Origin: a virus | Strand: one strand, 5' to 3' | Virus record (IMG/VR): IMGVR_UViG_3300045988_137427 | Location: 1 to 22,547 of that record | Length of the DNA: 22,547 nt | The notes under the pieces: model-generated | The model's input: only the letters and a program-made list of their open reading frames with translations | Databases searched by the model: none | Told to the model about the DNA's origin: nothing | In this document: piece by piece, positions 1-22,547 of the stretch | How positions within the stretch are numbered: position 1 is the stretch's first letter | Layout of the letters: each line of letters opens with the position of its first letter | Position numbers and translations under genes: made by a program

Positions 1-75
1 ATTTTTTTTCGGAAGCAAAATATAAAAAGTCTACTTATATATAGACGAGAGCGAAGGAAGAATAGCTACCTTCCC
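1..75. repeat. Terminal direct repeat, copy 1 (identical to 22473..22547); circular-assembly overlap or terminal redundancy
   Basis: Bases 1-75 (ATTTTTTTTCGGAAGC...AATAGCTACCTTCCC) recur exactly as the last 75 bases of the window. Confidence 0.9.
24..40 (+). promoter_or_regulatory. Conserved motif AAAAAGTCTACTTATAT, copy 1 (duplicated at 22496..22512 by the terminal repeat)
   Basis: Near-identical to AAAAATCTACTTATA at 2121..2137 and 2404..2419. Lies about 115 nt upstream of the first gene and is followed by a GGAAG/CTTCC hairpin. No sigma-70 -35 hexamer at the correct spacing. Confidence 0.5.
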
Positions 76-155
76 TAAAGTGTAAGACACAATAGCCTTC
101 CATTGTGCTGCGCACTCTCGTTTTTATTATAAACGGAAGGCAAGGAAGGGTAATT

Positions 156-1115
156 ATGAAATTTGATATTGAAAATCGTCTCAAAGACACCGCAATAGTA
201 AATCTAACTGATTTTGAAAACGCCATTGATTTATATGAAGATGGTGAAATCGAAAAGGCATTGGAACTTATGTTTGGATTGACAGTATTAGGATTTGGCG
301 GTGATTTTGAAGCAGAAGATAGAGAAGTGCGCCGTCTACTGCGCAATAGAGCTTATACAGTTGCTAAAAGTAATGAGACTTACTGTAATAAGGTTTAGTC
401 TAAAGAGGCGGGGCAAAGAGCTAAACTCCAATTAGATGATATTGCCGAAATGATGGCCAATGGAGCAACACAACAAATTATAGCGGATACTCTTTGCGTG
501 AGCCTCGATACTATCAAGTATAGAGTAAAAGTGATGAAAGAAAAGTTTCCGTTCCTTTACGCCGAAGGAGTAAAAAAGTGTAAAAAAGTTGGAGTTAGTG
601 TGAGTAATGATAATGATAATGATAATGATAATGAGAAAGAAAATGACAAAGAGAATAGCGCTTCATCATCCTCTTTTACAGAAAGTCAAGGGTGGGAGAC
701 AGTAGAAAAAATGAAAGAGCTCCATCCTTTTGATGCTGCAAATTCAGTAGAAACAAAAGCTGATTTGATGGCTTTCGTTATCGCCTACAAAGGAGAAAAC
801 TTTGCCACTTCGCGCGTAAATCAACAAATCAAAGATACAAAAGTTTCTCCAAAAGATTGCGCCCGCGCCTTGTATTATCTTGACGCAAAGGAAATGAAAG
901 GTAGATTTTGCAAAGGAATAGAGCCTACCCTCTATCTTTGCCTAAAAGATGAAAATATTGTTTCTGCTAACAACTACTTTGAAAAAGAGATTGCTCAAAA
1001 AGAAGCAATTATGCATAGTTTTCAAGTTGCAGAAGAAAACAAAAAAATTATCCGTGTGCCCATTCCTTCATCAAAGAAAAAAACCCCAACATACAACATT
1101 GATGAAATCAATTGA
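156..1115 (+). CDS. Putative regulatory/replication-associated protein with an HTH segment (DUF6291-like N-terminus, from memory); 1 in-frame TAG
   Basis: ATG 156 follows AAGGAAGGG. Track ORFs 105..398 and 450..1115 are both frame 0, separated only by TAG 396-398, with no other stop in 399-449. HTH-like GATQQIIADTLCVSLDTIKYRV. Stop is TGA. The fusion is less certain than for the structural genes. Confidence 0.55.
606..634 (+). repeat. Hexanucleotide tandem repeat (AATGAT) x ~4.8, encoding NDNDNDNDN
   Basis: aatgataatgataatgataatgataatga read directly; in frame within CDS 156..1115. Confidence 0.9.
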
Positions 1116-1136
1116 ACCATATAGGAGGTAAATATA

Positions 1137-1979
1137 ATGTATATTGTCGAAGCCACAAGCAGCGAAAACCGCACAACCCACGGTTCTATGGGTGATTAGA
1201 CAGGCCGCGAAATTTGCGTATCCAACTTCTACTCCTATCCTTGGGATGTAGTGCTCTACTGCAAGGATGATACCTTACGGCGCAAGGCCGCGCAGATAGC
1301 CCAAGAAATAGCTTCCAATCCTTCTTTTGGCTACTCTCAACCTAACCGCTGGACGGGCTACAACTCAATCGTAGCTAATGGTGGTAAAGTTGCGGGCGCG
1401 CAAGGAGATTTTGACTGTAGCTCCTTGGTTATCTCTTGTTATGTTCTTGCGGGGCTTGCTATCCCTACCGGCACAGGCTACACAGGAACTATAGAACAAA
1501 CCTTCTTATCTACCGGTAAATTTGAAGCTCTGCGCGGGCAGCACATCTTAGATTATATGCGCGGGGCTATTGGGTGTATTTATCTGAACACCGCCAATCA
1601 CACAGCAATAGGAATTACTGATGAAGCATTGCGCCCGCGCTACACAACTCCGAGTGCTGCGGCCTCCATCCCATCCATTGATATAAAAGACACTACCGCC
1701 GCGAATTGGGGAGGAAAAATAACCGTCCCCTTAGATACTTGCTCTGTGAAGTTGCCTATGCTTCAAAATGGTAGTGTTGGCCATTCGGTAGCAATGCTCC
1801 AAACTCTACTTCTGGCTAATGGGGGCTCGTTGCCCACTTGTGGCGCTGATGGGGAATATGGTAATGAGACTTCCAACGCTGTGCGCGCGCTACAACAGAG
1901 TAATGGGCTTGACGTTGACGGCATTGTTGGCGCGCAAACCTGGGCTTGTCTGCTTTGGGGTGGAAAGCTCCAATTGTAA
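1137..1979 (+). CDS. Endolysin: cysteine-peptidase-type peptidoglycan hydrolase plus C-terminal PG_binding_1-like domain; 1 in-frame TAG
   Basis: AGGAGG at 1124-1129 then ATG 1137. TAG 1197-1199 (codon 21) is in frame with track ORF 1251..1979. NlpC/P60-like Cys motif GDFDCSSLV and later NHTAIGI. C-terminal GADGEYGNETSNAVRALQQSNGLDVDGIVGAQTW is a typical peptidoglycan-binding repeat. Stop is TAA. Confidence 0.8.
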
Positions 1980-1993
1980 GTTTGGCTCACATT

Positions 1994-2039
1994 GCGCGGG
2001 CTCCATAGATTTTATGAATGGAATTTATCCAGCCCGCGC
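1994..2039 (+). other. Stem-loop after the endolysin gene (GCGCGGGCT ... AGCCCGCGC, with inner TCCAT/ATGGA)
   Basis: 9-bp perfect outer stem at 1994-2002 and 2031-2039. No adjacent T-run, so terminator function is uncertain. Confidence 0.4.
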
Positions 2040-2081
2040 CTTACAATCCAAAAATCAATTTCCAAAATTTATTTTTGAAAA

Positions 2082-2137
2082 TTTCAAAACCCGCACCAAT
2101 TTTTTCTAAAGTGTAGCCTAAAAAATCTACTTATAAG
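2082..2137 (+). promoter_or_regulatory. Repeated ~55-nt element, copy A (TTTCAAAACCCGCACCAA...CTAAA...AAAAATCTACTTATAAG)
   Basis: Aligns by eye with 2366..2420 (TTTCAACCCTGCACCAAA...CTAAA...AAAAATCTACTTATATCC). Preceded by the palindrome TTTTGAAAATTTCAAAA at 2073-2089. Confidence 0.55.
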
Positions 2138-2368
2138 TGGAAGGGAAAAGAGAACTTTGCCATTCAACTATACTTCCTTCCGCACCTCCTATATTTATCT
2201 ATCTATTTATGCCTAACTTCTTGCTCTGTTAGGCTTTACCCTAAAACTAATCCCTTTTGGGATTAGTTCAGGTTGGAGATACAAGAGAAACACATTCGTC
2301 TCCTGTCCATCTTTCTTTTTCTCCGCTCTTTGTCTCTCCAATCTGAACTAACCCCAAAAATTTTTTTT
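2138..2368 (+). ncRNA. Candidate structured, CU-rich non-coding RNA between the two repeated elements
   Basis: No start codon or RBS in the only open frame. Hairpins at 2139-2181 (GGAAGG/CCTTCC), 2211-2234 (GCCTAAC/GTTAGGC) and 2247-2266 (CTAATCCC/GGGATTAG). A long imperfect hairpin pairs 2259-2287 with 2326-2355, followed by A5T8. ACCTCCT at 2184-2190. Confidence 0.4.
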
Positions 2369-2420
2369 CAACCCTGCACCAAATTTATCTAAACCCTATA
2401 CCCAAAAATCTACTTATATC
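2366..2420 (+). promoter_or_regulatory. Repeated ~55-nt element, copy B; candidate late-operon promoter/regulator site upstream of nuclease-TerS-TerL
   Basis: Same core AAAAATCTACTTATAT at 2404-2419. Followed by the hairpin GAGGC..GCCTC and the RBS of the gene starting at 2456. Confidence 0.55.
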
Positions 2421-2455
2421 CAGAGGCAAAGGAGAAGCCTCAAGGAGACGAAAAA

Positions 2456-2899
2456 ATGACTAATTCAGCACTCATCGGAAAGCAAGGTGAAGCTCTATTC
2501 AAATAGGTAATGAGCGCCAGCTACATAGTTGAAGATGTATCCAACTGTAGCGCCTATTGGGACAAGGACATAGACTTCCTTCTCACTAACCCGCGCACCG
2601 GCAATACCCGTTCTTTTGAAGTAAAGAATGATTGCCGCATAGCGGAAACAGGAAACCTCTACCTTGAACTAACAAACGTCCATTCTAAAGGTGGGCTTGG
2701 TTGGTATCGCTTCACGCAAGCCGACTTCCTCGCCTACTGCGACGCCACTACCAGCACCATATACATAATCCCAATGGATTAGCTCCGCGCCAAGTTGAAA
2801 GATATGCAACGGCGCATAGCGTATTGCGGGAATGATAGTTCCGGCTGGCTTGTCAAGCTTTCTGAAATTCAAAACCATATCAATATAACAATCCTGTAA
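2456..2899 (+). CDS. PD-(D/E)XK-type (YraN-like) nuclease; 2 in-frame TAGs
   Basis: AAGGAGA then ATG 2456. TAG 2504-2506 (codon 17) joins it to track ORF 2510..2782. TAG 2780-2782 is followed by 38 more open codons to TAA 2897-2899. Motif GKQGEALF...DIDFLL...SFEVKND fits the D...E-x-K nuclease core. Confidence 0.6.
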
Positions 2900-2911
2900 G
2901 GAGGTGAGCTT

Positions 2912-3286
2912 ATGCCGAAAAGTATGAAAGACATTGCAGCAAGGCAAAATGCCTTTCTTGATGCCTATCTCGAAAACCCCACCTTGTCGATGAAAGCTCA
3001 CGCCGAGCGATTAGGTATAAATGTCCGAACCGTATATAATTGGAAAGACAACAACATAAACGGCTTTGCAGATAAACTCCAAGAGCGACTATCCCGCAAG
3101 TGGGAAGAGGCCAAACAAATGGCTTCCGAATAGATGTTTTCTCTTGCTCGTGAAGGAGACTTCAAAGCAGTAAAATACATCCTTGACTACCACGGATACG
3201 CGCCAGCGCAAAAAGTAGAGGCTAAAGTTGATGCTAAAACCGTGATAAATGTATGTATAGGAGACGAACCTACTAATGGAGATTGA
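2912..3286 (+). CDS. terS: Terminase small subunit; 1 in-frame TAG
   Basis: AGGAGGTG then ATG 2912. N-terminal HTH-like segment (LGINVRTVYNW). TAG 3131-3133, then the frame continues as MFSLAREGDFKAVKYILDYHGYAPAQK, a motif typical of small terminases. TGA 3284-3286 overlaps the TerL start. Confidence 0.7.
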
Positions 3287-4514
3287 GCTCAATCTTTCTA
3301 AGGCTCTTTTCTCTCCTAAGCTCTTTCCTTTACTTTTTGACTACTCCCACCGTTGGGAAGTCTACCTTGGTGGCGCGGGTTCTGGTAAGTCTTACTTTAT
3401 AACCCAAAAGCTAATTGTTCGGTGTTTGCGCGAACCTATCAAGGTTCTTGTGTGCCGCCGCTATGCTACAACTATTCGTAATTCTTGCTTTGCGCTTTTC
3501 AAAGAAATCCTATCCAAATGGAAGCTTATGGAGTATGTCAAAATACGAGAAACAGACTTCAACATACGCTTTCCTAATGGTTCAGAAATAGTATTTATTG
3601 GGCTTGATGATGAAACCAAACTGCTTTCTCTAACCAATATATCTACTATATTTATTGAAGAGGTTTATGAAGTCTCTAAAGAAGTAGTAGAACAGCTCAA
3701 TTTGCGTATGAGAGGTAAAGCCAAAAACCAACAAATCCTTATGGCTTTCAACCCCATATCTAAGCACCATTGGCTTTATGATTTTTGCGAAGTGAGCCCG
3801 CCGCAAAGCTTCTATTTTTCTAAAACCACCTATAAGGATAATCCTTTTCTTTCTCCTGCCTACATTCAATCTCTTGAAGAACTCATCCAGCGCAACCCCG
3901 CCAAAGCGCGCATATATACTCAAGGCTTATGGGGTGTGCCTTCCGAAGGGCTTGTCCTCACGAATTGGACAGCAGAACAATTTGACATTCACACTCTTCT
4001 TGAAGCTCGCCAATTAGAACACCGTTGCGGGATGGACTTAGGCTTCGTAGATAAAACCGCAATCATTGATAGTTGGTATGACGCGCCCGCGCGCACAATA
4101 TACATTACAAACGAATTTTACAAATCTGGTTGCCAGCTCTCTGAATTAGCGGATGCAATTACCTCTATGGGGCTTTCCAAATCGAAGCTTTGTGTAGATG
4201 CAGCAGAACCGCGCACAATCCAATTCTTTCGCATTCAAGGTATAAATGCTGTGCCTTGCGCGAAGGGTAAAGACAGCGGGAAAGCCGGGCTTATGTTTCT
4301 GCAAGATAACAAGCTCATTGTTTCTCCGTCTTGCGTGAACCTCATAACCGAGCTGGAAAACTTCTCATACATCAAATCCAAACAAACCGGAGAATACACC
4401 GACGATACCACCCACGAATGGAGCCACGCTATTGATGCTCTGCGTTATGGGTATTCTGATATATACACGAATAAGAAGCTAAAGACGCTTGATAAGAGCG
4501 TTTTAGGGCTGTAA
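3276..4514 (+). CDS. terL: Terminase large subunit (PBSX-like); TAG-free
   Basis: 412 aa uninterrupted. Walker A GGAGSGKS near the N-terminus and a C-terminal nuclease-type region (HAIDALRY). Positioned after terS. Confidence 0.9.
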   Translation: MEIELNLSKALFSPKLFPLLFDYSHRWEVYLGGAGSGKSYFITQKLIVRCLREPIKVLVCRRYATTIRNSCFALFKEILSKWKLMEYVKIRETDFNIRFPNGSEIVFIGLDDETKLLSLTNISTIFIEEVYEVSKEVVEQLNLRMRGKAKNQQILMAFNPISKHHWLYDFCEVSPPQSFYFSKTTYKDNPFLSPAYIQSLEELIQRNPAKARIYTQGLWGVPSEGLVLTNWTAEQFDIHTLLEARQLEHRCGMDLGFVDKTAIIDSWYDAPARTIYITNEFYKSGCQLSELADAITSMGLSKSKLCVDAAEPRTIQFFRIQGINAVPCAKGKDSGKAGLMFLQDNKLIVSPSCVNLITELENFSYIKSKQTGEYTDDTTHEWSHAIDALRYGYSDIYTNKKLKTLDKSVLGL

Positions 4515-5951: not shown

Positions 5952-6335
5952 ATGATAAAAGTAAACTATGACGCCACTACTGGCAAGGTTCTTTCCTTCG
6001 GCAAAGATACAGAACCCTATATTGAAATTACCGAAGCTGAACGGAAGCAACCTCTCCCAACAAAATACCACTACTATGCCGTAGTAGATGGAAAATTCAA
6101 AATTCTTTCGCGCGCACCTTCACCCGCAGAAACAAAAAACGATACTGCGCGCGCCCTACGTTCTCAAATTGCAACTCTGAAAGCTCAATTAGATGCTACT
6201 GATTATAAAGCTCTAAAGTTTATGGAGGGCTGGCTTACTGCTGACGAATACGCCGAGTGTAAAGCAAACCGCGCAGAGTGGCGCGCGCAAATAAACAAAT
6301 TAGAGGAGGAACTTGCTAATGTTCTTTCTGAATAA
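5952..6335 (+). CDS. Hypothetical protein, possibly a fibre assembly/chaperone-like protein; TAG-free
   Basis: GGAGG then ATG 5952. The C-terminal helical segment (ATLKAQLDATDYKALKFMEGWLTADEYAECKANRAEWRAQINKLEEE) resembles tail-fibre assembly proteins from memory. Confidence 0.5.
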   Translation: MIKVNYDATTGKVLSFGKDTEPYIEITEAERKQPLPTKYHYYAVVDGKFKILSRAPSPAETKNDTARALRSQIATLKAQLDATDYKALKFMEGWLTADEYAECKANRAEWRAQINKLEEELANVLSE

Positions 6336-7647
6336 GGATACAGAACTAACTCCCGCGCTTATCAATAAAATGATGAATTAGTTTATAGTTGCGGTTCGTC
6401 CTACGTTGCGCAATTACAAGAACTACTTCGACGGTAAGCAAGCTATTCTAAATAAGTCATATAACGATGCTTCTAAACCTTGTAATAAGGTTATCACAAA
6501 CTACTGTAGCGATATAGTGAGCTCCTATAACGGATACATTGCTTCTCCGGGCTATATCTCCTACAGTAGCGAAACTCCTATTGATGAGATTATGGAGTGT
6601 TTGAAATATAACGATTACCAAGACGAGGACAGCGATTTTCTAAATGATGCTCTTGTATATGGTGTGGCCGCGGAACTTATGTATATAGATAGTGATGGAA
6701 AAGTGCGTTTCCGTCTTATCAATCCGCTCAACTGTTTTGGTGTGTATGATGATAGTTTGAGTTAGGATTTACTCTACTTTGTAAGATGGTATAAGGCTAA
6801 CGAGTGGGATGAAAGCAACACTTACTTTCTTGATGCCTACAGTAATATTACTGTGCGCCATTATAAAATGAGTGGAGAGAATGGTGGACTTGTTTTTCTT
6901 TCCGAAGAGCCCCATTACTTCAATCAATGCCCGGCCAATATCTTCTATTTGGATAAAGATGAGCGCAATATTTTTGATTGTATTTTGAGCCTTCAAGATG
7001 CATACAACGAAATCCTCTCTGGTGAGATTGATGATTATGATGCTTTTTGTGATGCCTACCTTTCCATTACCGGATGCGACGCCGAGACGGATGATATTAT
7101 TTCTATGAAAGAAAACCGCGTCTTGGTTCTTCCGGAGGGAGCTGCCGCGGAATGGCTTACCAAAAACGCGAATGATGCACAAGTTGAAAATATCCTCAAG
7201 CGCATTCACGATAGTATCTACCGCATTGCAAAATGCCCCGACTTTTCCAGTGAGACATTTGTAGGCGGGGTAAGCTCTGGCGTGGCTATCCGCTACCGCC
7301 TTACCGGTTGTGAGACGAAGGCCGCAGCCATTGAGAGTAATATGAAGAAAGCGCTCCAACGCCGTATTGAGCTTATTGCGGGCGTCGCTTCTCTAAAGCT
7401 TGGCGAAGAGGTTTTCCGCGATATTTCTATTACATTTACGCGCAATATTCCTTCTGATAATAGCGACATTCTCAACACAGTCAAGGGACTACAAGGCGTA
7501 GTAAGTGATAAAACATTACTTGGTATGATACCTCAAGTGAGTGATGTAGATAAGGAATTAGAGGCTATTACCGAAGAGAAACAGAAGAAGATGGAACTCT
7601 ATTCTTTCGCGCCAACCAATACACCTGATGATGGTGATGAGGAATGA
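6319..7647 (+). CDS. Portal protein (SPP1 gp6-like); 2 in-frame TAGs
   Basis: GAGGAGGA then ATG 6319. TAG 6379-6381 (codon 21) and TAG 6763-6765 join track ORFs 6406..6765 and 6853..7647, all in frame 1. N-terminus ...YKNYFDGKQAI... is typical of portals. Acidic C-terminus. Stop is TGA. Confidence 0.85.
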
Positions 7648-8900
7648 GCCAAACAGAAGAATATTGGATTGAGCGTATACGCCGGGCGCAAGAAAAGCAA
7701 GCCACGCAATCTATAACCGAGCTTCAAAAAGAGTTGAATATTTACTACTCTAAAGCTATGCGACGGCTCATAAAACAATTTGAAGCTACCTATGAAAAGC
7801 TACTGCGTCAAACTGCGGAGGGTATAACGCCTTCTGTAGCGGATTTATATAAATTAGATACCTACTGGAAGCTTCAAGGCGCTTTACGCTTAGAGCTTCA
7901 AAAACTTGGCGATAAGCAAGAAGTATTGTTCTCTAAGAAATTTGAAGAAGCCTATGAACATATTTGGAAGTCTATTTCTCTCCCATCACAATCAGCATTC
8001 ACCCAACCAAGTATTGAGAATGCTAACCAACTTATCAATTCTATTTGGTGTGCAGATGGAAAGAATTGGAGCGCCCGTGTTTGGGGCAACATTGATAAGC
8101 TCCAAGAAAGCTTGAATGATGCTCTTGTTGATTGCGTGATTACCGGCAAAAAAACAACCGAACTAAAACATATGCTTATGGAAGAGTTTGGTGTTGGATA
8201 CAATCGCGCGGACACCATAGCCCGCACAGAAATAGCCCACATTCAGACGCAAACAGCGCGAGAACGCTATAAAAACTATGGCATTTAGAAAGTGAAAATT
8301 GTGGCTGATAAATCAAGTAGGACGTGCCCGCAATGCGCCGAGCTGGATGGGAAGGAATATCCCATTGATGCTACTATGCCCGTTCCCGTTCATCCGCGTT
8401 GCCGGTGTTGTATTGTGCCCGTAATGGATTTGACTTCACAGAAAGAAGATAGTAGACTACAAGAAAAGCCGAAAGAAAAACCACGGCGCACAAGAGCAAT
8501 GTCTGTTCCGTCTCATAGCAAAACAATCCGCGTAGAACCGCCTGATATTGTCCAGCGGGCTATTGATAAGGTGAAGGAGCTATAGAAGAGTGGAGAACCG
8601 CTGCACTTCTATAAACGAACAAAGAGACATTAGAACCACGCGGAAGAACTCACCGGCCTAACCGGAGATGAAGCGTGGCAGAAGTATGAAGAAATGGCCG
8701 ATGCCTTTATGAAAAAAGACATTGACGGAAAGGATATGGAGGGCTTTATGAGTAGTATGGATTGGCTCTTCAAGTTTGAACATTCTTCCGGGCGAATAGG
8801 TATATTGAGCGATAAAGGAACAATATCAACTCTATTTGTGCCCGATAAGCAATCACCAGAAGAATATTGGAAGGAACAAATAAATGAATACGGAAAATAA
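7644..8900 (+). CDS. Head morphogenesis protein (MuF / SPP1 gp7 family) with an extra ~105-aa C-terminal domain; 3 in-frame TAGs
   Basis: ATG 7644 overlaps the portal stop. Frame 0 is continuous through TAG 8286, 8583 and 8631 to TAA 8898-8900, joining track ORFs 7644..8288, 8292..8585 and 8694..8900. MuF signature RTCPQCAELDGKEYPID...HPRCRCCIVP. No RBS before ATG 8694. Confidence 0.75.
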
Positions 8901-9096
8901 TAAGAAAAACCCTGCTATTCGTCCCTGCCCGGTTTGCGGAAAGTATATCTTCAAAGAACCTTATGAAGATTGCCCTGTTTGTGGGTGGGAGAATGATGTT
9001 GTCCAAGAGAAATGGCTAACAGTTGGCGGGTGTGCAAATGTAATGTCCCTTGAGGAATGCCGTAAGGCATATGCCGAGGGAAAAGAATTTTTCTAA
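8884..9096 (+). CDS. CPCC-family cysteine-rich (zinc-ribbon-like) protein; TAG-free
   Basis: CPVCGKY...CPVCGWENDVVQ...GGCANVMSLEECRKAY matches the remembered CPCC family pattern. Overlaps the 3' end of the MuF gene by 17 nt. Confidence 0.7.
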   Translation: MNTENNKKNPAIRPCPVCGKYIFKEPYEDCPVCGWENDVVQEKWLTVGGCANVMSLEECRKAYAEGKEFF

Positions 9097-9106
9097 GTTG
9101 TTTTCT

Positions 9107-9135
9107 GGAAGAAACGGGATTTTCCCGTTTCTTCC
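9107..9135 (+). terminator. Hairpin GGAAGAAACGGG-ATTTT-CCCGTTTCTTCC after the MuF/CPCC genes
   Basis: 12-bp perfect stem read directly, followed by TTCTATAT, a weak T-tract. Confidence 0.6.
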
Positions 9136-9230
9136 TTCTATATATGTCGCTTTGGGGGTTCAGACACTAAACGAACAATCAAATAATGGGGTTGCGGGCT
9201 TCCCGCAAAATCATAACGGAGGAATACATA

Positions 9231-9812
9231 ATGGATAACGAAAATAAAGGTATGGAAAATAACCAGTAGGGGCAGGGCGCGGAAAACAATCCGAGCACTG
9301 AACCAGAGGCTAAGACATATACCCAAGAAGAGGTTCTCCGCCTCTTACAGAGTGAGAGCGACAAGCGAGTAAATCAAGCTCTCGCAAAGCAAAAGAAAGA
9401 ATACGAGAAGAAGCTTTCCTTGACTTCTCTTGATGAGCAACAGCGTAAAGACGCGGAAGCTCAAATGCGTATTGAAGAGCTCCAAAGCCAGCTCGCGCAA
9501 TTCCAGATTGAAAAGAATAAGAGTGAGTTGAAGTCTGTTCTTTCAAGCAGAGGATTGAGCGCGGAATTTGCCGATATTATTTCTATCGGTGAGGATATTA
9601 CGGAAGCTCAAACAAATATTGATACATTGGATAGACTTTTCAAGGCGGCGGTAAAGGCCGAGGTAGAAAAGCGACTTGCGGGAAATACTCCCAAGGGCAA
9701 CTCTTCTTCTAACGGCGAGATTACAAAAGATGTCGTAAAGAAAATGTCTATGGCTGAATTGAATAAGTTGGCTATTGAACAGCCAGAAATATTTTCCAAG
9801 TTTTTTGGATAA
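9231..9812 (+). CDS. Scaffolding protein (DUF4355-like); 1 in-frame TAG
   Basis: GGAGGA then ATG 9231. TAG 9267-9269 (codon 13) is in frame with track ORF 9420..9812. Charged coiled-coil composition and a position immediately upstream of the major capsid gene. Confidence 0.65.
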
Positions 9813-9827
9813 TGGAGGATTACATAT

Positions 9828-10646: not shown

Positions 10647-10663
10647 TTTATTCTGAAAATAAA

Positions 10664-10681: not shown

Positions 10682-10702
10682 TCCTAATAGGAGGCTACTA
10701 AA

Positions 10703-10996: not shown

Positions 10997-10997
10997 G

Positions 10998-12041: not shown

Positions 12042-12055
12042 TGGAGGTAGATTTT

Positions 12056-12445: not shown

Positions 12446-12458
12446 TTCCCATATGGGG

Positions 12459-12498
12459 AGTTGGGGGAGGTTCCTTTCTCCCCCTCCCCCAACTTTTT
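12459..12498 (+). terminator. Rho-independent terminator-like hairpin AGTTGGGGGAG...CTCCCCCAACT + TTTTT
   Basis: 11-bp perfect stem at 12459-12469 and 12484-12494, followed by a T5 run. Confidence 0.7.
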
Positions 12499-12517
12499 AT
12501 AAATGGAGGAAAAATAA

Positions 12518-12856
12518 ATGCTGTATGTTGATTTTAGCGCGGGTGGGCGTGATTATAAATTACGCTTGAACACCCGTAATATCGTAATGCTTGAGAAGTA
12601 GATTGGATGTAATCCTATTGCTATTTTTGGAGATGGGGATACATTACCAACTATTACCTCTATGGTTGCTATTCTCTACGCGAGCCTTCAATACTTCCAT
12701 CACGGGGTTGGGCTGAATGAAGCCTATGATATTTATGATGATTATATTGGTGATGGACATAGCGCAAGCGACTTTATCAAGGTAATTCTTGAGGTTTATA
12801 AGGTTTCTGGTTTGCTTCCCGCTGACGCCAGCACCGAGGAAGCCGAAAAAAACTAA
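12518..12856 (+). CDS. Tail assembly chaperone (G-like); 1 in-frame TAG
   Basis: GGAGG then ATG 12518. TAG 12599-12601 (codon 28) is in frame with track ORF 12662..12856. N-terminus GGRDYKLRLNTRNIVMLEK[TAG]IGCNP matches the usual chaperone pattern. Stop is TAA at 12854-12856. Confidence 0.75.
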
Positions 12857-13263
12857 TGGAAGGGGGCTCGCAAAATGTAGCCCCCTTTCTTTACACAGAT
12901 AAGATAGTTGAGTTGTTAGATAAGGCTCTTGATTGGGGTATTGGGGAATTTGACTTTTGGAATATGACGCTCACCGAATTGGAGCGCTTGCTCAAAAGTA
13001 AACAGCGCAGACAAAAGAACGAACTTCAAGAAAAAGCTTTCTTTGACTACAGACTTGCTCAACTGATAGGCGTTAGTGTAGGGCGCATATATGATAGTAA
13101 GTGCTCTCTGCCCTCTTTGGAAGATGCCTATCCAACTATTTTTGACAGAGAAAAATTACAAGAGGAAAAGCAAGCTCAAACAGATGAGTTATCTGCTTTG
13201 AGATTTAGATAGTTCGCGCATACCTATAATATGAAATATGGAGGGGATGCGAATAATGAATGA
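12518..13263 (+). CDS. Tail assembly chaperone -1 frameshift product (G-T-like); additional in-frame TAG in the extension
   Basis: Frame 2 shifts to frame 1 at 12847-12853. The -1 frame is open to TAG 13210-13212 and then for 16 more codons to TGA 13261-13263, overlapping the tape measure start. Confidence 0.6.
12847..12853 (+). promoter_or_regulatory. -1 programmed ribosomal frameshift slippery heptamer A_AAA_AAC
   Basis: The zero-frame codons are gaa aaa aac taa. The -1 frame then reads aaa aaa cta atg into track ORF 12856..13212. Hairpin GGGGGCT..AGCCCCC starts at 12863, about 9 nt downstream of the slippery heptamer. Confidence 0.7.
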
Positions 13264-15337
13264 AGAATTGAAAGTTATTATAAAGGCCGAAATTGCCCAA
13301 TTCAAACAAGGAATAGAGTAGGCTAAAAGCTCCATTCAAGGCTTCAAAGCAAAAGTAAATTCAATGAAAGGCGAAGCCGATAAAGTCATAAAGAAAATGG
13401 GTAAATCCTTCGCAGACTTGGGAAAGAAAATTGCAAAGGCGTTCGTTGCCGGATGTGCGGCGGCGGGTGCTGCGGTTTTAGCTCTTGGTAAGAAAGCGCT
13501 AAGTGCTTATAGCGATTATGAACAGTTAGTTGGCGGTATTGATATGCTATTCAAAGAGAATAGCCAAACCGTTCAAGCCTACGCGCGCGACGCTTACAAA
13601 AACCAATAGATGAGCGCTAATCAGTATATGGAAATGGCTACCTCATTTAGTGCTGGCCTCATTGCGAGCGTTGGCGGCGATACTGCCAAGGCCGCGCAAA
13701 TCGCAGATATGGCTATTACAGATATGGCCGACAATGCGAACCGTATGGGTAGCACTATGGAAAGCATTCAAAACGCTTACCAAGGTTTTGCAAAATAGAA
13801 TTATACAATGCTCGATAACCTCAAATTAGGCTATGGTGGCACAAAGCAAGAAATGGAACGTTTACTTGCCGACGCTACAAAGCTCACAGGTATCAAGTAT
13901 GATATAAATAATCTTTCAGACGTATATGAGGCAATCCACGCCATTCAGACAGAAATGGGCATTACCGGCGCGACAGCAGACGAGGCCGCGAAAACAATTC
14001 AAGGCTCTGTTGCTATGATGAAAGCCGCGTGGACAAACTGGCTTGTTGGCTTGATGGATGATAACGCCGATATTGGGCAGCTCACCAAGGATTTGATTAG
14101 TTCTGTAGGGACTGTAATTGATAATATCAAGCCAAGAGTAAAGCAATTCTTCCAGAGTTTTGTAGAGGGTGTCCACACCGCATTAGAGCCCTACCCCGCA
14201 CTTCAAGCAATGTTTGACGGAATTGTGAACGCGCTACAAACTGTATAGAATACAGTAAGCGCTGTGGTGGGTTTTGTCGTGCAAAATTGGGCAACACTTC
14301 AACCCATTCTTATAGCCGTTGCCGCGGTTATTGGCGTAATTGTCGCCGCCGTAGCGATGTATAACGCGGTTGCCGCTATAAAGCTTGCTATGGATGCCGC
14401 GCAAGTAGCTACTTTGGGAGCACTCGCCGCAGCTACTTGGGCAGCTCTCGCGCCATACTTGCTTATCGCCGCAGCCATTGCCGCGCTCATTGCAATTATT
14501 GTTCTTTGCATTACTCATTGGGACGCTATCAAAGCGAAAGTAAGCGAAGTATGCGCCGCGATTGCTAACTTTGTTTCAAGTATGGTTGGCAAGGTAAAAG
14601 AGTGGTTTGGCAATATGAAATCTGCCATTTCTGAAAAGGTTGATGCTATAAAGGCAGAAGCAAGTGAAAAATGGGCTACCATCAAAGGCGTAATTACCAA
14701 TGCTGTCGCCGCAGCCAAAGAGCAGACACAAGCTCACCTTTCCGCTATGAAGTAGGCTTATGAAGAAAATGGCGGCGGTATCAAGGGTATTGTTGCCGCG
14801 TTAGGCGCTGGATTGAAGAGTATCTTTTCAAGTGCATATGCTTCTATTGATGCTCTAACAGGTGGTAAACTTTCTGCTATCCGTGATAAGTTCAGTAATA
14901 TTCTTGGACAAGCCCGTGATAAGGTGAAGGGTATTATTGATAAAATCAAGAGCTTCTTCAATTTCAATTGGAGCTTGCCGCACTTGAAGATGCCTCATAT
15001 CTCTATTTCCGGTAGTTTTAGTCTCTCCCCGCCGAGCGTGCCCAGGTTCGCAATTAGTTGGTATGCGCGCGGCGGTGTGTTCGATGCGCCTACTCTGTTC
15101 AACTATGGGAATGGTGCTCTTGGAGGATTAGGCGAGCACGGCGCGGAAGCGGTTGTCCCTCTGGAAAACAATACCGAATGGCTTGATAAAATTGCCGAAC
15201 GTCTTGCCGCAGGAATGGGTGGAAGTAATACACCTATTGTTCTCCAAGTAGACGGAAAGACATTTGCAGAAATTAGTGTTGATAGTATCAACGCGCTTAC
15301 ACGTCAACGCGGTAGTCTTGGAATAAATCTTGTGTAA
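13256..15337 (+). CDS. Tail tape measure protein; 5 in-frame TAGs
   Basis: GGAGGGG then ATG 13256. Five track ORFs (13364, 13610, 13808, 14264, 14813) are all in frame 2, joined only by TAG 13319, 13607, 13796, 14246 and 14753. Conserved tape-measure motif YQGFAK[TAG]NYTMLDNLKLGYGGTKQEMERLL. Hydrophobic Ala-rich central segment. Stop is TAA. Confidence 0.9.
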
Positions 15338-15349
15338 GGAGGGGTATAA

Positions 15350-15703
15350 ATGGCTTATTTTCAAATTGGCTCACACGACTATAGCGCTTATACAAGCTCG
15401 TTGAAAGTTGGATATACCGTGAATTATACTTCTCAAACTAACGCCTCTTATAATTCCGTAGTTGATTATCACAACACAAAGACAACGGTAGAGGTAGAGG
15501 TTATTCCATTGGATGATGAAACAATGAAGTAGTTGCTCACGGATATAAAATCGTTCTCTATAACGATTTTTTACCGTGAGCCTCAAACGGGGACTTTTGC
15601 GGAACTTCCTGTTGTATGTTCCTCGTATAATACGGACTACTATACCATTCAGCAAAGCAACGTAAAGTATAAGAAAATGAAACTCAAATTTACTCAACTG
15701 TAA
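15350..15703 (+). CDS. Small tail component (distal-tail-like position); 1 in-frame TAG
   Basis: GGAGGGG then ATG 15350. TAG 15530-15532, then 56 further open codons to TAA 15701-15703, checked codon by codon. Confidence 0.55.
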
Positions 15704-15715
15704 GGAGGGCAGACT

Positions 15716-17326
15716 ATGCTAACAACTACAACCGCATATAATACCGCTATTAGTGCGTCTGTCCGCAAAATCAAAGCCAAAGCAGAGTTCTATCAAGGCT
15801 CTGCTTTGGTAGATACCTATACTGATGAGGACAGAATAATTTCCTTTGATATTTAGCGCATAGGTGATGATGGTAAGTTTTTTGGCTTTGGTGTATGCCA
15901 GCGCCTCAATATCCATCTAATAGATAAAGATAGAGAGTTAGCCTACTCAACAGCTAACTCTATCAAAATTGGAATAAGCCCTCGCCTTGTGAGTGATGAG
16001 GTTGAAACGGAATACATTACCTATCCCACGTTCTATGTTTCCGAAATCCACCGAGACGAAAAGACGAATGAGCTTTCTATTACGGCCTATGATGCGATTT
16101 ACCCAGCGGCCGCGCATACAGTTAGTGAACTTGTGGTTGAGAAGCCATACACTACAGCTCAATTTGCAGCGGCCTGTGCTACTCTTTTAGGCGTCGGCAT
16201 TACCGGCACAGATAGCTTTACCGTTTCCTATGAGAATGGCGCGAACTTCGACGGCACAGAGACAATAAGAGAAGCGCTTGATTATTTAGCCGAAGCTACA
16301 CAAACAATCTATTTTATCAACTCTACGGGGACTTTGTGCTTCAAGCAACTAAACAAAGAAGGAAATGCAGTATTAGCAATCTCTAAGGATATTTATTTTG
16401 AATTTAGTAGTGGAAGCGGAAAGCGCCTTTAGACAATTTGCAGCGCTACAGAATTAGGTGATAATGTCAGCGAAAGCACTACACAAATAGGCTCTACACA
16501 ATATGTAAGAGATAATCCTTTTTGGGAACTGCGCGACGATATAGCAACTCTAATTCATAATGGAATTGAGGTAATTGGTAATATAACGATTGATGTATTT
16601 TCGTGTAGCTGGCGCGGAAATCCTGCATTAGAAGTAGGAGATAAGCTTACACTACAAACAAGAGATAATCAAACAATTACCTCTTATGTTCTCAATGATA
16701 AGATTGAATATAATGGCGCACTAAAAGAAACAACTCAATGGAAGTATAACGAGACTTCCGCAGAAACCGAAAGCAATCCCACGAGTATAGGCGACGCTAT
16801 AAAATAGACGTATGCGCGCGTCGATAAATAGAAAAAGCAAATTGACTTGGTAGCGAGTAAAACCGATGAGCTGGAAAGTAAAAACTCCGCTCTCCAAATT
16901 GCTACGGATAAAATCTCTATGGAAGTCAAAGAGAGCAAGCAAACGACAAAAGAAAGTTTGGATGCTCTCAACTCATCTATTCAAGAAGTTCAAAATAGTG
17001 TAAAGACTTCAATCAGCGCATAGGATGTTCAAATCCAGATTGAGAACTCTCTAAAGAATATCAATAGCGTTTCCACTACTACAGGCTTCAAGTTTGATGA
17101 AAACGGCCTCCAAATTTCAAAGACAGATAGCGATATTTCTACTATCGTCAATGAAGATGGTATGAAAATTGAAAGTGGAAGCACGGTATTACTCGATGTA
17201 AATAATACTGGTGTAGATGCTATCAACCTCTTTGCGTCTCAATATCTGCGTATTGGAAACACTCGCTTTGAGGATTATTCAAATAATACGCGCACGGGCG
17301 CTTTTTGGGTAGGAGGGAATAACTAA
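15716..17326 (+). CDS. Tail tip / minor structural protein with coiled coil and a conserved C-terminal ...RFEDY..RTGAFWVG module; 5 in-frame TAGs
   Basis: GGAGGG then ATG 15716. Frame 2 is open to TAA 17324-17326, checked codon by codon. The only interruptions are TAG 15854, 16430, 16805, 16829 and 17021. This fills the ORF-poor stretch 16433-17325. Confidence 0.75.
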
Positions 17327-18978
17327 TGGCTACAAGTTGCAGTATTGGCCTTGTTGACGGCGGTAGGTATCCGCTAAATACCGGAACACTTTATGCTTCT
17401 CGGTGTAATTATGAAGCGTCGCTTTCTTATTCCCAAGTAATCAAGGATGATGGAAAATATATTCGTGTAGTTATCAGCGGAAATTATAGCGTGAGCTATC
17501 ACCAATTATCCGGCTACACAATGAAAGCGCCTAACAATTATTCTTTTATTGTTTAGGATGTAAGTAGCAACCGATATGATAGCGCCGAGCACTCCATTGT
17601 AAATGGTTCTTATGTATATGAGTATAAGTATAATGTGCTATCTGCGCTAAATTTCAAATATCGTATCTATGCGTGGTGTCAATGTGTCCCGCAGTATGTA
17701 GGTAAAGAACAAACAGAATATCTTGAATGTGTTCCATCTACTACTATCGGTGTAAGCGCTATCTCTGCGGTTGGCGCGGATATTGGTAAGACTGTAAATA
17801 TCAATATTGTTGCTATGGATGATAGCTACACCAATAATCTCTCCTACAAAGTGGGAGAAACTATTACCACTATTGCGGAAGGTATTGGCGGCGGCACTGT
17901 TCAATGGACTATTCCCACTTCTCTATTCAATTCATTAGGAGCTACAGATAAGAGTATTCCTATTCGCCTCATTGTTGAGACGTTTGCTTCTAATGGTGTG
18001 AGCTTAGGGCAAGATATAGTAGATATTGCGGGCTATGCTTCGGAAGCTGATTGTAAGCCGACGCTGAACCCCGTATTCACCATTACGAACCCTCAAACCG
18101 CGCTCACAGGCAACAGCTCAACAGCAATTGTGGGGTATGATACGGTTTCAGTAGCCATAAATCCGCAAACAAAATATAATGCTACGCGCAAAGTGCTATC
18201 TGCGAAGCACGGCAGCGTAATAGTGGAGAATAGCACCACTCCAACATTCAATGTTGTAAATGATAGCTTCCAATTTTCTATTACGGATAGCCGTGGATAT
18301 TCTACTACCCAAACCGCCACTATTCCGTTGGTGTAGTGGTTCAAGCCGACAATCTCAATGACGGCAACAAATCCAGATGCAACCACCAACAAAAGCACTA
18401 TCACCATCAAAGGCACATTCTTCAATTCAACCTTTGGCGCTGAAAATAATACCGTAGCTATCAAAGTTCGTTGGAAAGAGGGAAATGGAACATACAGCGA
18501 TTGGGTAGACGCAACAGCTACAATCAAAAATAATTCCGTGAACGCTACCTATGAGGCGACACTTGATTATACAAAGCAATGGACTATTCAAGCTTCAATT
18601 ACAGACAAGCTCACCACCGTCCTCTCCAAAGAAGCTATAGTCATTACCCTACCGGTGTTCGATTGGAGCAAGTCAGACTTCAACTTCAATGTGCCGGTTG
18701 TTGTTCAAAACACTTGGAATGGACTTATGACAAAATCTCCAAATGGAATGTTGAGTGGTTTGCGCGCCGAAAATACTACTACTGGAAATGCTATGTTTGT
18801 AGGATATGAAAGTGATGGTATAACACACGGAATATATTCCTATGCACAAGATACTTGGCTAATTCAAAGTGATGGAACTAACTGCTATATATGTGGTGAT
18901 AAGGTTCGTAAAATTTCCTCTGGAACGTCTGAACCTTCCGGTGGCTCTGATGGGGATATTTATTTCAAATATTCATAA
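17326..18978 (+). CDS. Tail fibre / receptor-binding candidate (DUF859-like by memory); 2 in-frame TAGs
   Basis: ATG 17326 overlaps the previous TAA. Track ORFs 17326..17556, 17635..18336 and 18358..18978 are all in frame 1, joined by TAG 17554 and 18334. Confidence 0.7.
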
Positions 18979-18990
18979 GAGGTGAGATGA

Positions 18991-19890
18991 ATGGGAACTT
19001 GGACAACAACAGCCCCAACTCTTCCTTCTGGTGCATAGTGGCTACAAGGTAAAACAATAGCTGGTAGTTCAAACCATTGGACAATAAGTGGCACTATTTA
19101 TATTGCCTCGATGGGCTCCAACCAATTTGCCGTGCGTATGGCGATGTGGAACGGAAATGGCTCATATGGAACTTACTATCCTCCAAGTAAGTGGAATTTG
19201 ACTTGCCAAGGTAATACAACTACCCAATTCTCTGTATCAAAAGGAAGATAGACTTTTTACTATATTGGGGAAGCAACCGCGGGCACATCAATTACCACGT
19301 CCTTCAATCAAGGTGATAGTGCAATCGCGCAACAAAAGGTAGTTTAGACTGTCCCAACTGGACAAGAGCCTAAAGCCATTTGGACAAACTCCGCTCCAAC
19401 TCTCCCACAAGATAGCGCCTATGAGCAAAATAAAACTTTTTCCGGTGGTTCAAACCATTGGGCAATGAGCGGTAGCGCTTCTATTGCACGTTTAGATGGA
19501 AATCAATTTGTTATAAAATTAGTTGCAACAAGCTCTAACGGCTCGTATGGAACTTATTATGCCCCAAATGATTGGATGTTGCGTTGTGATGTTGGAGATA
19601 GCGTAGGTGGATGGGATACTTCTTTTAGTATGACTAAAGGAACATCTACATATTACTATATTGGAGAAGCTTCACCCAATACTACTATCAAAGTATACGT
19701 CAACGGTGCTGGTGGAACTGGAAGCGCTGTAGCAACGCAAACTATGACTTTTACCGCGCCAGCCTCCTTAGCAATTTTGGTATATGTGAATGTAAATGGA
19801 ACTTGGAAACAGGCTACTCCTTGGGTGAATATAGGGGGAACTTGGAAACAAGTTGTTCCGTATATAAATAATGCGGGCACTTGGAAATAA
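18991..19890 (+). CDS. Tail-associated protein with an internal ~125-aa duplication and C-terminal GTWK repeats; 3 in-frame TAGs
   Basis: GAGGTGA then ATG 18991. Frame 1 is open to TAA, with TAG 19036, 19249 and 19345. Repeats are GTWTTTAPTLPSGA..SSNHWTISG..GSYGTYYPPSKW..FYYIGEA versus IWTNSAPTLPQDSA..GSNHWAMSG..GSYGTYYAPNDW..YYYIGEA. Confidence 0.7.
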
Positions 19891-19907: not shown

Positions 19908-20132
19908 ATGGACTTTCAACCGATTGTTGAAGTAGTGCTACAGTAGGGTATTTGGTGTGCCCTCTTTGTATGGCTCTTCTACATCAATAAGAAAGAAGCT
20001 ACCGCGCGCGAGGAACGTTTGAACGGCATTGTGGATGAGCAGAAAGAAACACTAAAGGAAATCTCTCAATCTCTCATTCTACTCAATGAGCGCATTGAGA
20101 AGGTAGAAGAGAAAATTTTAGGCAATGACTAA
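19908..20132 (+). CDS. BhlA/UviB-family holin-like protein; 1 in-frame TAG
   Basis: GGAGG then ATG 19908. TAG 19944-19946 is codon 13. VVLQ[TAG]GIWCALFVWLFYINKKE followed by a charged helix matches the remembered BhlA pattern (..TQGPFAVLFCWLLFY..). Stop is TAA. Confidence 0.7.
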
Positions 20133-21291: not shown

Positions 21292-21319
21292 CTAAACAAG
21301 CATACAAAAGGCGCTGCCT

Positions 21320-21360
21320 TGATTACGAATCAGCTGCACTACCGACTGTGCTATGCCAGC
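21320..21360 (-). other. 5' two-thirds of a tRNA-Thr(CGU)-like gene (positions 1 to ~41); candidate attP core
   Basis: The - strand reads GCTGGCA TA GCAC AGTCGGTA GTGC A GCTGA TTCGTAA TCA. It has U8, A14, G18G19, U33 and anticodon CGT. No complementary 3' anticodon-stem strand, T-arm or 3' acceptor strand follows. Confidence 0.6.
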
Positions 21361-21417: not shown

Positions 21418-21454
21418 AGCCGGGGAGTTGATTTGCTCTTTCAACGCCTCAAGT

Positions 21455-21483
21455 AATTTATCACGGAAATGTTCATATGTCAA
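21455..21483 (-). promoter_or_regulatory. Sigma-70-type promoter on the - strand (TTGACA-17-TAAATT) pointing at the tRNA-like fragment and integrase
   Basis: Reverse complement of 21478-21483 is TTGACA. The spacer is 17 nt. Reverse complement of 21455-21460 is TAAATT. Confidence 0.6.
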
Positions 21484-21653
21484 GAAGTTTTGTGGTTAGA
21501 ATTTTTTTCTTGGATGTAGCCTATGTTTGAGTGGTTTTTATGGTGCCCGCGCCAAGCGATTAGAACGGGCATACAAGAGGCTTTTGTTTTCAGAATACAA
21601 AGATACTATTGAAGTGCAAAAGACGCTATAAGGCGCGCACAGAGCCCCAGAAT

Positions 21654-21682
21654 TTGAATTACTCTAAAATCTGCGGTATAAT
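21654..21682 (+). promoter_or_regulatory. Sigma-70-type promoter TTGAAT-17-TATAAT for the 65-aa gene
   Basis: TTGAAT at 21654-21659, a 17-nt spacer, then TATAAT at 21677-21682, about 34 nt upstream of ATG 21716. Confidence 0.7.
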
Positions 21683-21715
21683 ATATATAGAAAATAAAGA
21701 AAGGAATTGAGTTCT

Positions 21716-21913
21716 ATGAGAAGTAAAACTACTTTTACCTTTGAGGATGAAACAACATATAAGTCTTTTCTTGCGGCCTTGGGCTATCTGGGCTTTATGG
21801 AGAGCTGGCAGGAGGGCAAAAGCTACATCGTAGAGATTGATGATGCTCTTGTGTGGCTGGATGATAAAGCCCGCGATAGACTTGCGGATTGGGCAGAAGA
21901 GCACGATGTATAA
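21716..21913 (+). CDS. Small acidic hypothetical protein (moron-like unit); TAG-free
   Basis: AAAGGAA then ATG 21716 (the track ORF starts at TTG 21707). 65 aa. Has its own promoter and terminator. No recognisable family. Confidence 0.6.
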   Translation: MRSKTTFTFEDETTYKSFLAALGYLGFMESWQEGKSYIVEIDDALVWLDDKARDRLADWAEEHDV

Positions 21914-21919
21914 GAAAAA

Positions 21920-21942
21920 GAGGTAGGCATATAGCCTACCTC
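21920..21942. terminator. Bidirectional terminator hairpin GAGGTAGGC-ATATA-GCCTACCTC between convergent genes
   Basis: 9-bp perfect stem. TTTCT follows on the + side and an A-rich stretch precedes it. Confidence 0.7.
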
Positions 21943-21961
21943 TTTCTATAGCTTCAATGAC

Positions 21962-22306
21962 TTACTTTCCGTATTTCCGCAAAAGGCTCTCTGCCCAAGT
22001 CTCTTTATGCGCCGTGCCCTTGACGATAGAGGGGAAGAACTTCTTGGCAAACTCCGCGCGGACACTGACGAACGGGTTGGCTTGCTCAACCACTTTCTTT
22101 TCTCCGTCCTTACCCTTTTCAAATTGCACTTTTTTGGTAGCTACACCAATGAGCCATTCAATTTCGTTGTGCGCCACACAGTAGTTCTCAATGAACTCTT
22201 GGCAGATGTCGCTTATCTGCGTGGGGATGAAGTCTGCGTCAATGCGGTATTGAGTGGAAACCTCTTCGCCCTTGGACTTGTGGGTTTTTGTAATGAATTG
22301 CGCCAT
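21962..22306 (-). CDS. Hypothetical 114-aa protein on the lysogeny/early side; TAG-free
   Basis: Strong RBS (AAAGAGGAGG) 7 nt upstream of the ATG on the - strand. Uninterrupted, with a TAA stop. Divergent from the first + strand gene across the circle junction. No family recognised. Confidence 0.65.
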   Translation of the reverse strand: MAQFITKTHKSKGEEVSTQYRIDADFIPTQISDICQEFIENYCVAHNEIEWLIGVATKKVQFEKGKDGEKKVVEQANPFVSVRAEFAKKFFPSIVKGTAHKETWAESLLRKYGK

Positions 22307-22472
22307 AGGGATGCCTCCTCTTTAGTTTGTGAGTATAGGATACTACTACTTTGCGGCGGGCGCAAGAATTAGTTAGATATTCATAGATGTATACCAATGG
22401 GGGATGGTGCTTTTGGGCATATTCACAAAGAGAAAACGAAATTTTCAATTTGGAAATTTTGGAAAATGTAGT

Positions 22473-22547
22473 ATTTTTTTTCGGAAGCAAAATATAAAAA
22501 GTCTACTTATATATAGACGAGAGCGAAGGAAGAATAGCTACCTTCCC
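22473..22547. repeat. Terminal direct repeat, copy 2 (identical to 1..75)
   Basis: Exact 75-nt match to the window start. Confidence 0.9.

Follow-up and report, generated by a model that had tools for sequence, protein, structure and literature searches.

The stretch of DNA analyzed here, the 22,547-nucleotide IMG/VR virus record IMGVR_UViG_3300045988_137427 (hereafter the window), is the complete genome of a temperate siphovirus with a compact gene set, in which the amber codon TAG is decoded as glutamine (code 15) across nearly the whole rightward gene set of regulator, lysis, packaging, and virion genes. Recognizable decoding machinery in cis is absent from this closed genome, which needs TAG read-through for its virion and lysis genes. 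Our tentative assignment of the decoder of UAG, and the likeliest of those weighed below, is an amber suppressor of the tRNA-Gln type that comes from a second genetic element present in the cell. The window can be taken as a single closed genome (22,472 bp), given that its ends carry an exact 75-nucleotide direct repeat and that contigs from two other samples (L036 and L038) are 100% identical to it with circularly permuted start points.

Read in the standard code, long open reading frames (ORFs) covered 50% of the window, compared with 83% when TAG was treated as a sense codon. In the latter case, the plus strand was tiled nearly without gaps by genes with strong ribosome-binding sites. A total of 39 in-frame TAGs was found, spread over 20 of the 28 genes. 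These genes include those for capsid, portal, tape measure, tail, holin, and endolysin proteins, and the claim of a first-pass annotation of this DNA that the capsid, portal, tail, holin, and endolysin genes all need TAG read-through was borne out by in-frame TAGs in each. Gene ends are TAA or TGA throughout; in standard-code relatives, 10% of ORFs end in TAG. PHROG profile matches run across the TAGs, spanning positions 8–441 of 444 for the portal protein and 7–698 of 699 for the tape measure protein. Standard-code relatives have glutamine at the TAG positions in 18/18, 14/16, and 16/23 conserved columns. Among seven strains at 92–95% identity, TAG was retained at 128 of 134 positions and was otherwise CAG, and new TAGs among the strains come mainly from CAG or CAA. 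One practical result is that gene callers set to the standard code fragment phages of this kind.

The ratio of nonsynonymous to synonymous substitution (dN/dS) was 0.11–0.14 after the first TAG of each gene and 0.05–0.12 before it, indicating that the read-through parts are translated in nature. That the window might represent a decaying, nonfunctional prophage with TAGs as inactivating mutations is accordingly of negligible probability. Although a remnant of this phage does occupy the same integration site in one host contig (L050), the dN/dS of ∼0.12 downstream of the TAGs refutes this explanation, and the strain-level conservation of TAG, the recovery of circular copies in several samples, and the absence of disruptions by TAA or TGA also speak against it.

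The base following TAG matched the background composition, with no sign of a read-through context bias. Two essential genes of the window contain five TAGs each and the tape measure gene of a relative contains up to 16, in no special context, so that decoding must be efficient. Misreading of UAG by near-cognate tRNA-Gln is established, and a host of 60% GC would probably be rich in tRNA-Gln(CUG). Nevertheless, the efficiency demanded here argues against leaky read-through by this host tRNA with no dedicated factor. Yield from genes with five to 16 TAGs would be negligible, the base after TAG shows no context bias, and TAG is the majority glutamine codon in some relatives that lack a suppressor tRNA. 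We regard leaky read-through as very improbable.

A suppressor tRNA was sought in the window with ARAGORN and Rfam covariance models. ARAGORN returned 0 tRNAs in default mode, no tRNA with a CUA anticodon in its circular, intron, and mitochondrial/organellar modes, and nine calls at ps80, none of which had a CUA anticodon. With Rfam models applied to the whole window, 0 matches reached the gathering scores, and relaxing the threshold to E ≤ 10 revealed no tRNA. When the non-coding blocks were scanned at lax settings, the sole tRNA match was at 21295–21360 on the minus strand, scoring 19.2 bits (gathering score 29), in which the 5′ strand of the acceptor stem, the D-arm, and the CGU anticodon arm are present and the T-arm is missing. 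The piece at 21320–21360 is not a complete cloverleaf, having neither a T-arm nor an acceptor 3′ strand. As positive controls, the same tools recovered tRNA-Thr in the host loci and a tRNA(CUA) of 39.2 bits in a relative, L077, of which no homologue or remnant was found in the window. Eight checked assemblies of the species (L035, L036, L038, L039, L041, L048, L049, and L053) likewise contained no tRNA. Two statements of the first-pass annotation, that no suppressor tRNA(CUA) is encoded in cis and that the only tRNA-like sequence is a truncated Thr(CGU) fragment, here nucleotides 1–41 without the T-arm, were thus upheld.

One further ARAGORN call, made at ps70 only, was a “tRNA-Pyl(cta)” at 13752–13837 on the minus strand. 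This call was rejected as noise: it is one of 62, its stems contain mismatches, it is without a T-loop consensus, lies antisense within the tape measure ORF, and has a minimum-energy fold that is not a cloverleaf (z = −1.8). Apart from this call, the idea that a highly aberrant, split, or permuted tRNA(CUA) was missed draws on the suspicion of Borges et al. (bioRxiv 10.1101/2021.08.26.457843) that non-canonical tRNAs serve such phages. It is scarcely credible for the window, where non-coding DNA totals only ∼1.4 kb, Rfam shows nothing but the Thr fragment, and similarity to the L077 tRNA is lacking.

In PHROG and Pfam, matches to release factors, aminoacyl-tRNA synthetases, and tRNA-modifying enzymes were found for no ORF of the window. 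The first-pass annotation had noted no ORF resembling release factor 2, a glutaminyl-tRNA synthetase, or an antagonist of release factor 1 (RF1); the profile searches agree for the first two, whereas for RF1 antagonists no protein family is defined for matching and the negative result does not extend to them. Its conclusion that decoding must be in trans is sound in that recognizable cis machinery is absent, but is not strictly implied, as a cis factor of an unrecognized kind may exist.

Information on when UAG is decoded was obtained from the lysogeny side of the genome. The integrase gene of the window contains no TAG, which taken alone has P = 0.26. For the integrase and unk114, a gene of the lysogeny side transcribed divergently from the lytic operon, the TAG count is 0 in 8/8 lineages (pooled P = 10^−19.9). 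TAG decoding must therefore be conditional rather than constitutive. Elsewhere in the genomes of lineages that lack a suppressor tRNA, TAG occurs at 5–18 per 1,000 codons and makes up 15–56% of glutamine-type codons; this high share together with the TAG-free lysogeny genes implies that decoding is both efficient and conditional. The two gene sets of the window also differ in their other glutamine codons, with the late genes favoring CAA over CAG (184:45) and the integrase favoring CAG (8:1).

The family of unk114 comprised 204 clusters in a profile search, almost every one of them on contigs of ≤25 kb; the gene lies beside that for the integrase and is always TAG-free, and the IMG/VR viral collection that was searched yielded no member. 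The predicted model of the protein is confident (predicted local distance difference test score, 84.5) and has no neighbors in the PDB, consistent with an orphan fold. Because every carrier lineage assessable at first was TAG-recoded, with unk114 and the integrase gene as the only consistently TAG-free genes, unk114 was considered as a code-switch factor, but it was rejected as recoding-specific when divergent members (L075 and L076) were found in standard-code phages. It is probably a repressor or immunity protein and is a hallmark of this ∼22-kb phage family. An orthologue with 95% identity is present in BFVD (A0A8S5U0G0, “Siphoviridae sp. ctNEy24”), such that a close relative of the phage is already in UniProt.

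The first-pass annotation had proposed that integrated copies be found via the tRNA-Thr junctions, and this approach yielded the host. Several contigs break inside the tRNA fragment, and junctions of the attL type were found in L040, L049, and L050. In L040 (1–120), 79 foreign nucleotides include a TTGACA-17-TAAAAT promoter that leads into the 5′ end of the tRNA. A scan of metagenomes with the integrase gave the two further loci. L049 comprises 4.1 kb of host flank (1–4056), attL, and phage in that order, and L050 is a 52.7-kb host contig with a ∼1-kb decayed prophage remnant between attL and attR, where attR (region 9700–10822) restores a complete tRNA-Thr(CGU). The remnant (L050:9780–10822) consists of the integrase N terminus, a 146-nucleotide piece of the portal/MuF junction (window 7598–7740), and both att junctions, and shows that prophage decay happens at this site. 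An empty attB with an intact tRNA-Thr (12880–13052) was present in L054, downstream of groES-groEL-ldh2.

The phage brings the 5′ 41 nucleotides of tRNA-Thr(CGU), a stretch that takes in the anticodon loop, and not the usual 3′ end. To judge from the junction sequences, integration replaces the promoter and the 5′ half of the tRNA gene, both of which are cut off at attL. Expression of the rebuilt tRNA-Thr at attR would then be driven by a promoter-like site of the phage; L050 has its site placed likewise, upstream of attR. The D-stem of the phage copy is a compensatory variant (GCAC/GTGC) of that of the host (GCTC/GAGC). The flanking DNA has a GC content of 60–61.5%, a gap of ∼17 points from the 42.6% of this temperate phage, and GroEL of the host is 86–87% identical to proteins named “Oscillospiraceae bacterium.” On this similarity, the host is assigned as an uncultured member of the Oscillospiraceae, with integration in its tRNA-Thr(CGU) gene.

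The genetic code of the host was assessed on the host contig, where 20 genes (∼5,900 codons) contain 0 in-frame TAGs. TAG ends three of the 20 genes, all in a low-GC island, and none of the 13 core high-GC genes; an IS200-like gene adjoining attB also ends in TAG. The island (L054:13381–17302; GC 0.40–0.48) lies just downstream of the empty attB and contains genes for a DEDDh exonuclease, a helix-turn-helix (HTH) protein, and an integrase-like protein; TAG ends three of the island genes. The host tRNA-Thr gene is an integration hot spot.

The finding of conditional decoding, combined with the code of the host flank, argues against a host that decodes TAG constitutively, whether by reading it as sense, by a permanent suppressor, or by lacking RF1. 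The absence of TAG stops from the 13 core genes, a small sample, would fit such a host, as would the scatter of recoding among close standard-code relatives, which could track host shifts. On the other hand, host genes are free of in-frame TAG, TAG does terminate the island and IS200-like genes, avoidance of TAG in lysogeny genes (pooled P of about 1e−20) would serve no purpose under constant decoding of TAG, and standard-code hosts are reported by Borges et al. for the phage clade to which this one is compared below. Constitutive decoding is consequently improbable. Among the sources of decoding offered by the first-pass annotation, a host reading TAG as sense is disfavored by the same observations, and a host-encoded suppressor is disfavored in its constitutive form by the avoidance of TAG but may apply in a conditionally expressed form. 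The third source, a co-resident helper phage, may also apply; a related 22-kb phage with a tRNA(CUA) resembling tRNA-Gln exists.

To place the window among its relatives, the large terminase subunit (TerL) was used. Relatives with 52–72% TerL identity mostly use the standard code, and TAG recoding occurs at no fewer than five separate points of the TerL tree. Two recoded relatives that were covered end to end (28.7 and 18 kb) and other recoded loci yielded no tRNA(CUA), and neither did 139 kb of recoded relatives scanned with Rfam. A phyletic search found no window gene that was confined to recoded relatives, the gene repertoire being shared with standard-code relatives. Among ∼12 recoded relatives, a tRNA(CUA) is present only in the least recoded, L077, a 22.1-kb contig (Hadza NODE_6603). 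Its tRNA gene (1834–1907, minus strand) has its own terminator and is placed upstream of an unk147-like gene and the small terminase subunit gene. The tRNA has U1 unpaired with position 72, G2–C71, G3–C70, and G73, which we take to be the tRNA-Gln identity set. L077 contains eight TAGs, in tail genes only, equivalent to 3.3 per 1,000 codons. It has the look of a genome that is only starting to be recoded, while its heavily recoded relatives have no tRNA.

Within the same phage group, the 22,019-bp metagenome-assembled genome (MAG) contig L074 has 58 in-frame TAGs, which make up 54% of its glutamine-type codons. A complete tRNA-Thr(CGU) lies beside its integrase gene (L074:6435–6510); either the contig crosses the edge of an integrated copy there, or the phage carries the whole tRNA as attP. 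In L025 and L032, two low-GC members of the TerL family, in-frame TGA (three to four within aligned regions) takes the place of TAG, suggesting recoding of TGA inside this phage family.

Supply of the decoder in trans is favored because the same gene content occurs in recoded and standard-code form, because recoding has arisen repeatedly, and because tRNA-Gln(CUA) genes circulate in the phage group. With at least five separate origins of recoding in the TerL tree, drawing on a shared external resource is easier than repeated invention in cis. An unrecognized cis switch is a possible but less favored explanation. Here, a small protein or non-coding RNA would inactivate RF1 or reprogram UAG, and host tRNAs would read TAG as glutamine. 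Candidates are a transcript of the conserved non-coding block at 2080–2455, which is the best physical candidate, the small TAG-free ORF65, and the N-terminal 80 residues of the HTH regulator. A switch triggered by the phage would naturally account for conditional decoding, and Borges et al. had suggested new kinds of RNA or enzyme as well as changes made to the host machinery.

The non-coding block has several features of interest in this regard. Copies of a 54-nucleotide repeat are located at 2082–2135 and 2365–2418, with a third at 22458–22511, each upstream of a transcription unit, and the element ends in TCTACTTATA. A long hairpin (2254–2362, ∼108 nucleotides) is followed by a T8 run, and the predicted fold of the block is stable (z = −4.4). 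Identity among strains was 94.4–94.7% for the block, a value like that of the flanking genes, as opposed to 70–79% for the spacer at 1980–2079. Such conservation, the stable fold, and synteny with the suppressor tRNA locus of L077 support the candidacy of the block, which nonetheless had no tRNA match at E ≤ 10. Its features are equally explicable as promoters and a packaging site, and from its sequence the block could comprise promoters plus a small RNA or packaging site. More generally, no element is common to the tRNA-less recoded lineages; non-coding blocks of the window have no counterpart outside the species among the relatives compared. Integrase and unk114, the only genes that are TAG-free in 8/8 lineages, are also present in standard-code relatives. 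Each of the recoding origins would need an invention of its own, and near-cognate reading would be unlikely to manage 5–16 TAGs per gene.

Under supply of a suppressor tRNA in trans, normal termination at TAG would leave only the integrase, unk114, and the products of a few other TAG-free genes full-length. Infection would default to lysogeny and the lytic genes would stay locked. In the first rightward gene, that for the HTH regulator, the TAG at codon 81 precedes the HTH region, and without suppression only an 80-residue fragment would be made; given the position of this TAG, decoding of UAG, whether by supply in trans or by a cis switch, would be needed to release the very first step of the lytic program. 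Lytic growth would require efficient cognate decoding of UAG as glutamine that is not phage-encoded, and the donor may be a co-resident or co-infecting code-15 phage, for example one like L077, or else a gene that the host carries and expresses conditionally. In effect, the phage would behave as a natural multi-amber mutant that grows only in a “supE-like” cell state. Several observations weigh against this reading. The 21-kb host locus has tRNA-Thr as its only tRNA, so a suppressor donor was not seen there, and no exact copy of the L077 tRNA was found in IMG/VR. L077 itself has no similarity to the att region of the window and has an integrase of different size; on these grounds, its att site is probably a different one, and its host may be as well. 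Obligate reliance on a second element also seems risky for a phage of many human populations. Finally, a lineage-specific small protein or RNA, such as one from the constrained block syntenic with the L077 tRNA locus, may be responsible instead.

Several known systems invite comparison. Classical amber-mutant phages grow on supE (tRNA-Gln CUA) hosts, where their in-frame UAGs make growth depend on a glutamine-inserting suppressor of the cell, as several in-frame UAGs would do here under supply in trans. Such mutants are laboratory strains with one or a few ambers, whereas the 39 TAGs found here are natural, fixed, and selected. Helper-dependent satellites such as P4 and the phage-inducible chromosomal islands provide a possible analogy, in that a function is supplied by another mobile element; unlike the phage described here, which has a full set of packaging, head, tail, and lysis genes, they have no virion genes, and by this analogy the dependence would concern decoding. 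Code-15 crAss-like and Lak phages also use TAG for glutamine in late genes and keep early genes compatible with the standard code, but they are large, mostly virulent phages of Bacteroidota, many of which encode a tRNA(CUA) and sometimes release factor 2, neither of which is present here. L077 shares the size class and gene order, with an unk114 homologue beside its integrase gene and TAG-free lysogeny genes; it differs in having its own tRNA(CUA) and TAGs confined to tail genes, whereas the window has ∼2-fold higher TAG density and no homologue of the tRNA.

On described features (size, recoding, integrase, and site) and not on TerL placement, the phage is of the published “Topaz” type. Borges et al. 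described this clade as TAG-recoded temperate phages of 22 ± 3 kb, with a curated prophage of 23,706 bp in Oscillospiraceae that lies between its integrase and a host tRNA-Thr. The integrase of that prophage lacks TAG, its host uses the standard code, and free circular copies are nearly identical to it. The window shares the size of ∼22 kb, TAG-to-glutamine recoding in structural and lysis genes, the TAG-free integrase, free circular copies, a standard-code Oscillospiraceae host, the integrase and tRNA-Thr bounds, and close standard-code relatives. It differs in length from the curated prophage, and at least one Topaz genome is reported to have a suppressor tRNA, whereas this species has none. 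The view of the first-pass annotation that decoding in trans was not established for small temperate phages was an overstatement of novelty in light of these prophages. The same authors detected TAG suppressors in just 40% of genomes with TAG recoding and offered, in addition to the explanations cited above, that phages sense the suppressor tRNAs of co-infecting phages. Gulyaeva et al. (PMC9610469), who listed 18 Topaz viral operational taxonomic units, found a matching tRNA in just 13% of 285 complete TAG-recoded genomes. Missing suppressors are thus already published for 60–87% of TAG-recoded phages, and the window adds a member to a known group.

The species was seen in more than 15 independent assemblies (92–100% identity) in which the phage DNA never exceeds ∼22.6 kb, and the exact integrase protein is present on at least 15 human-gut metagenome contigs (Hadza, Peru, and others), each ≤22.6 kb. 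Both free and integrated forms were recovered. In the collections searched, there was no megablast match to the window among GenBank phages, the species was not found in the IMG/VR viral collection, and the only matches in the genome collection were three phage-sized MAG contigs, none of which was an integrated copy. Features of the window are collected in Table 1. The HTH protein (156–1115) contains an Asn-Asp repeat, which arises from an out-of-frame reading of (TAATGA)n (605–646).

Table 1. Features of the window, annotated from PHROG and Pfam profile matches unless another basis is given
Feature	Position	Strand	Basis or remark
Terminal direct repeat	1–75		Identical to 22473–22547
HTH regulator, first rightward gene, 319 residues, one TAG at codon 81	156–1115	+	PHROG HTH DNA-binding, weak Pfam GerE
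Endolysin (ELLD + PG_binding_1), TAG at codon 21	1137–1979	+	PHROG/Pfam
Conserved non-coding block, not tRNA-like	2080–2455	+	Repeats, fold, strain identity
Terminase small subunit, one TAG	2912–3286	+	PHROG
Terminase large subunit, TAG-free	3276–4514	+	PHROG
Head module: portal (two TAGs), MuF-like minor head protein (three), small Cys-rich protein, scaffold (one)	6319–10646	+	PHROG
Major capsid protein, two TAGs (end of head module)	9828–10646	+	PHROG
Connector and tail module	10703–19890	+	PHROG
Tape measure protein, five TAGs	13256–15337	+	PHROG
Tail protein, five TAGs	15716–17326	+	
Tail protein, two TAGs	17326–18978	+	
Tail protein, three TAGs	18991–19890	+	
BhlA-family holin, TAG at codon 13	19908–20132	+	PHROG/Pfam
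Tyrosine integrase, TAG-free, Gln codons 8 CAG : 1 CAA	20167–21138	−	Profile match
attP core, nucleotides 1–41 of tRNA-Thr(CGU)	21320–21360	−	Rfam (19.2 bits) and att junctions
Promoter-like site, TTGACA-17-TAAATT with TG	21455–21483	−	Motif; putative function
Small TAG-free ORF65, 65 residues	21716–21913	+	ORF call
unk114, 114 residues, TAG-free, lysogeny side, divergent from lytic operon	21962–22306	−	Profile family

Changes of the genetic code in phages are understood only where a suppressor tRNA, and sometimes a release factor, is visible, and most TAG-recoded phages show neither. The genome described here is a clean, minimal test case, being closed, 22.5 kb in length, with ∼1.4 kb of non-coding DNA, and recovered repeatedly from human guts; its host locus and att site have now been identified, together with the integrated, free, and empty-site states. 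The search is narrowed by the finding that lysogeny genes are TAG-free even in suppressor-less lineages, with TAG elsewhere accounting for up to half of the glutamine codons. It is a doubtful proposal that suppressor-less, TAG-recoded temperate phages of ∼22 kb as a group switch the meaning of UAG without a phage tRNA, through either a new cis factor or an obligate “genetic-code helper.” In the former case, an RNA or small protein would disable RF1 or reprogram the host tRNA-Gln, and in the latter, lytic growth would be licensed by the tRNA-Gln(CUA) of another element.

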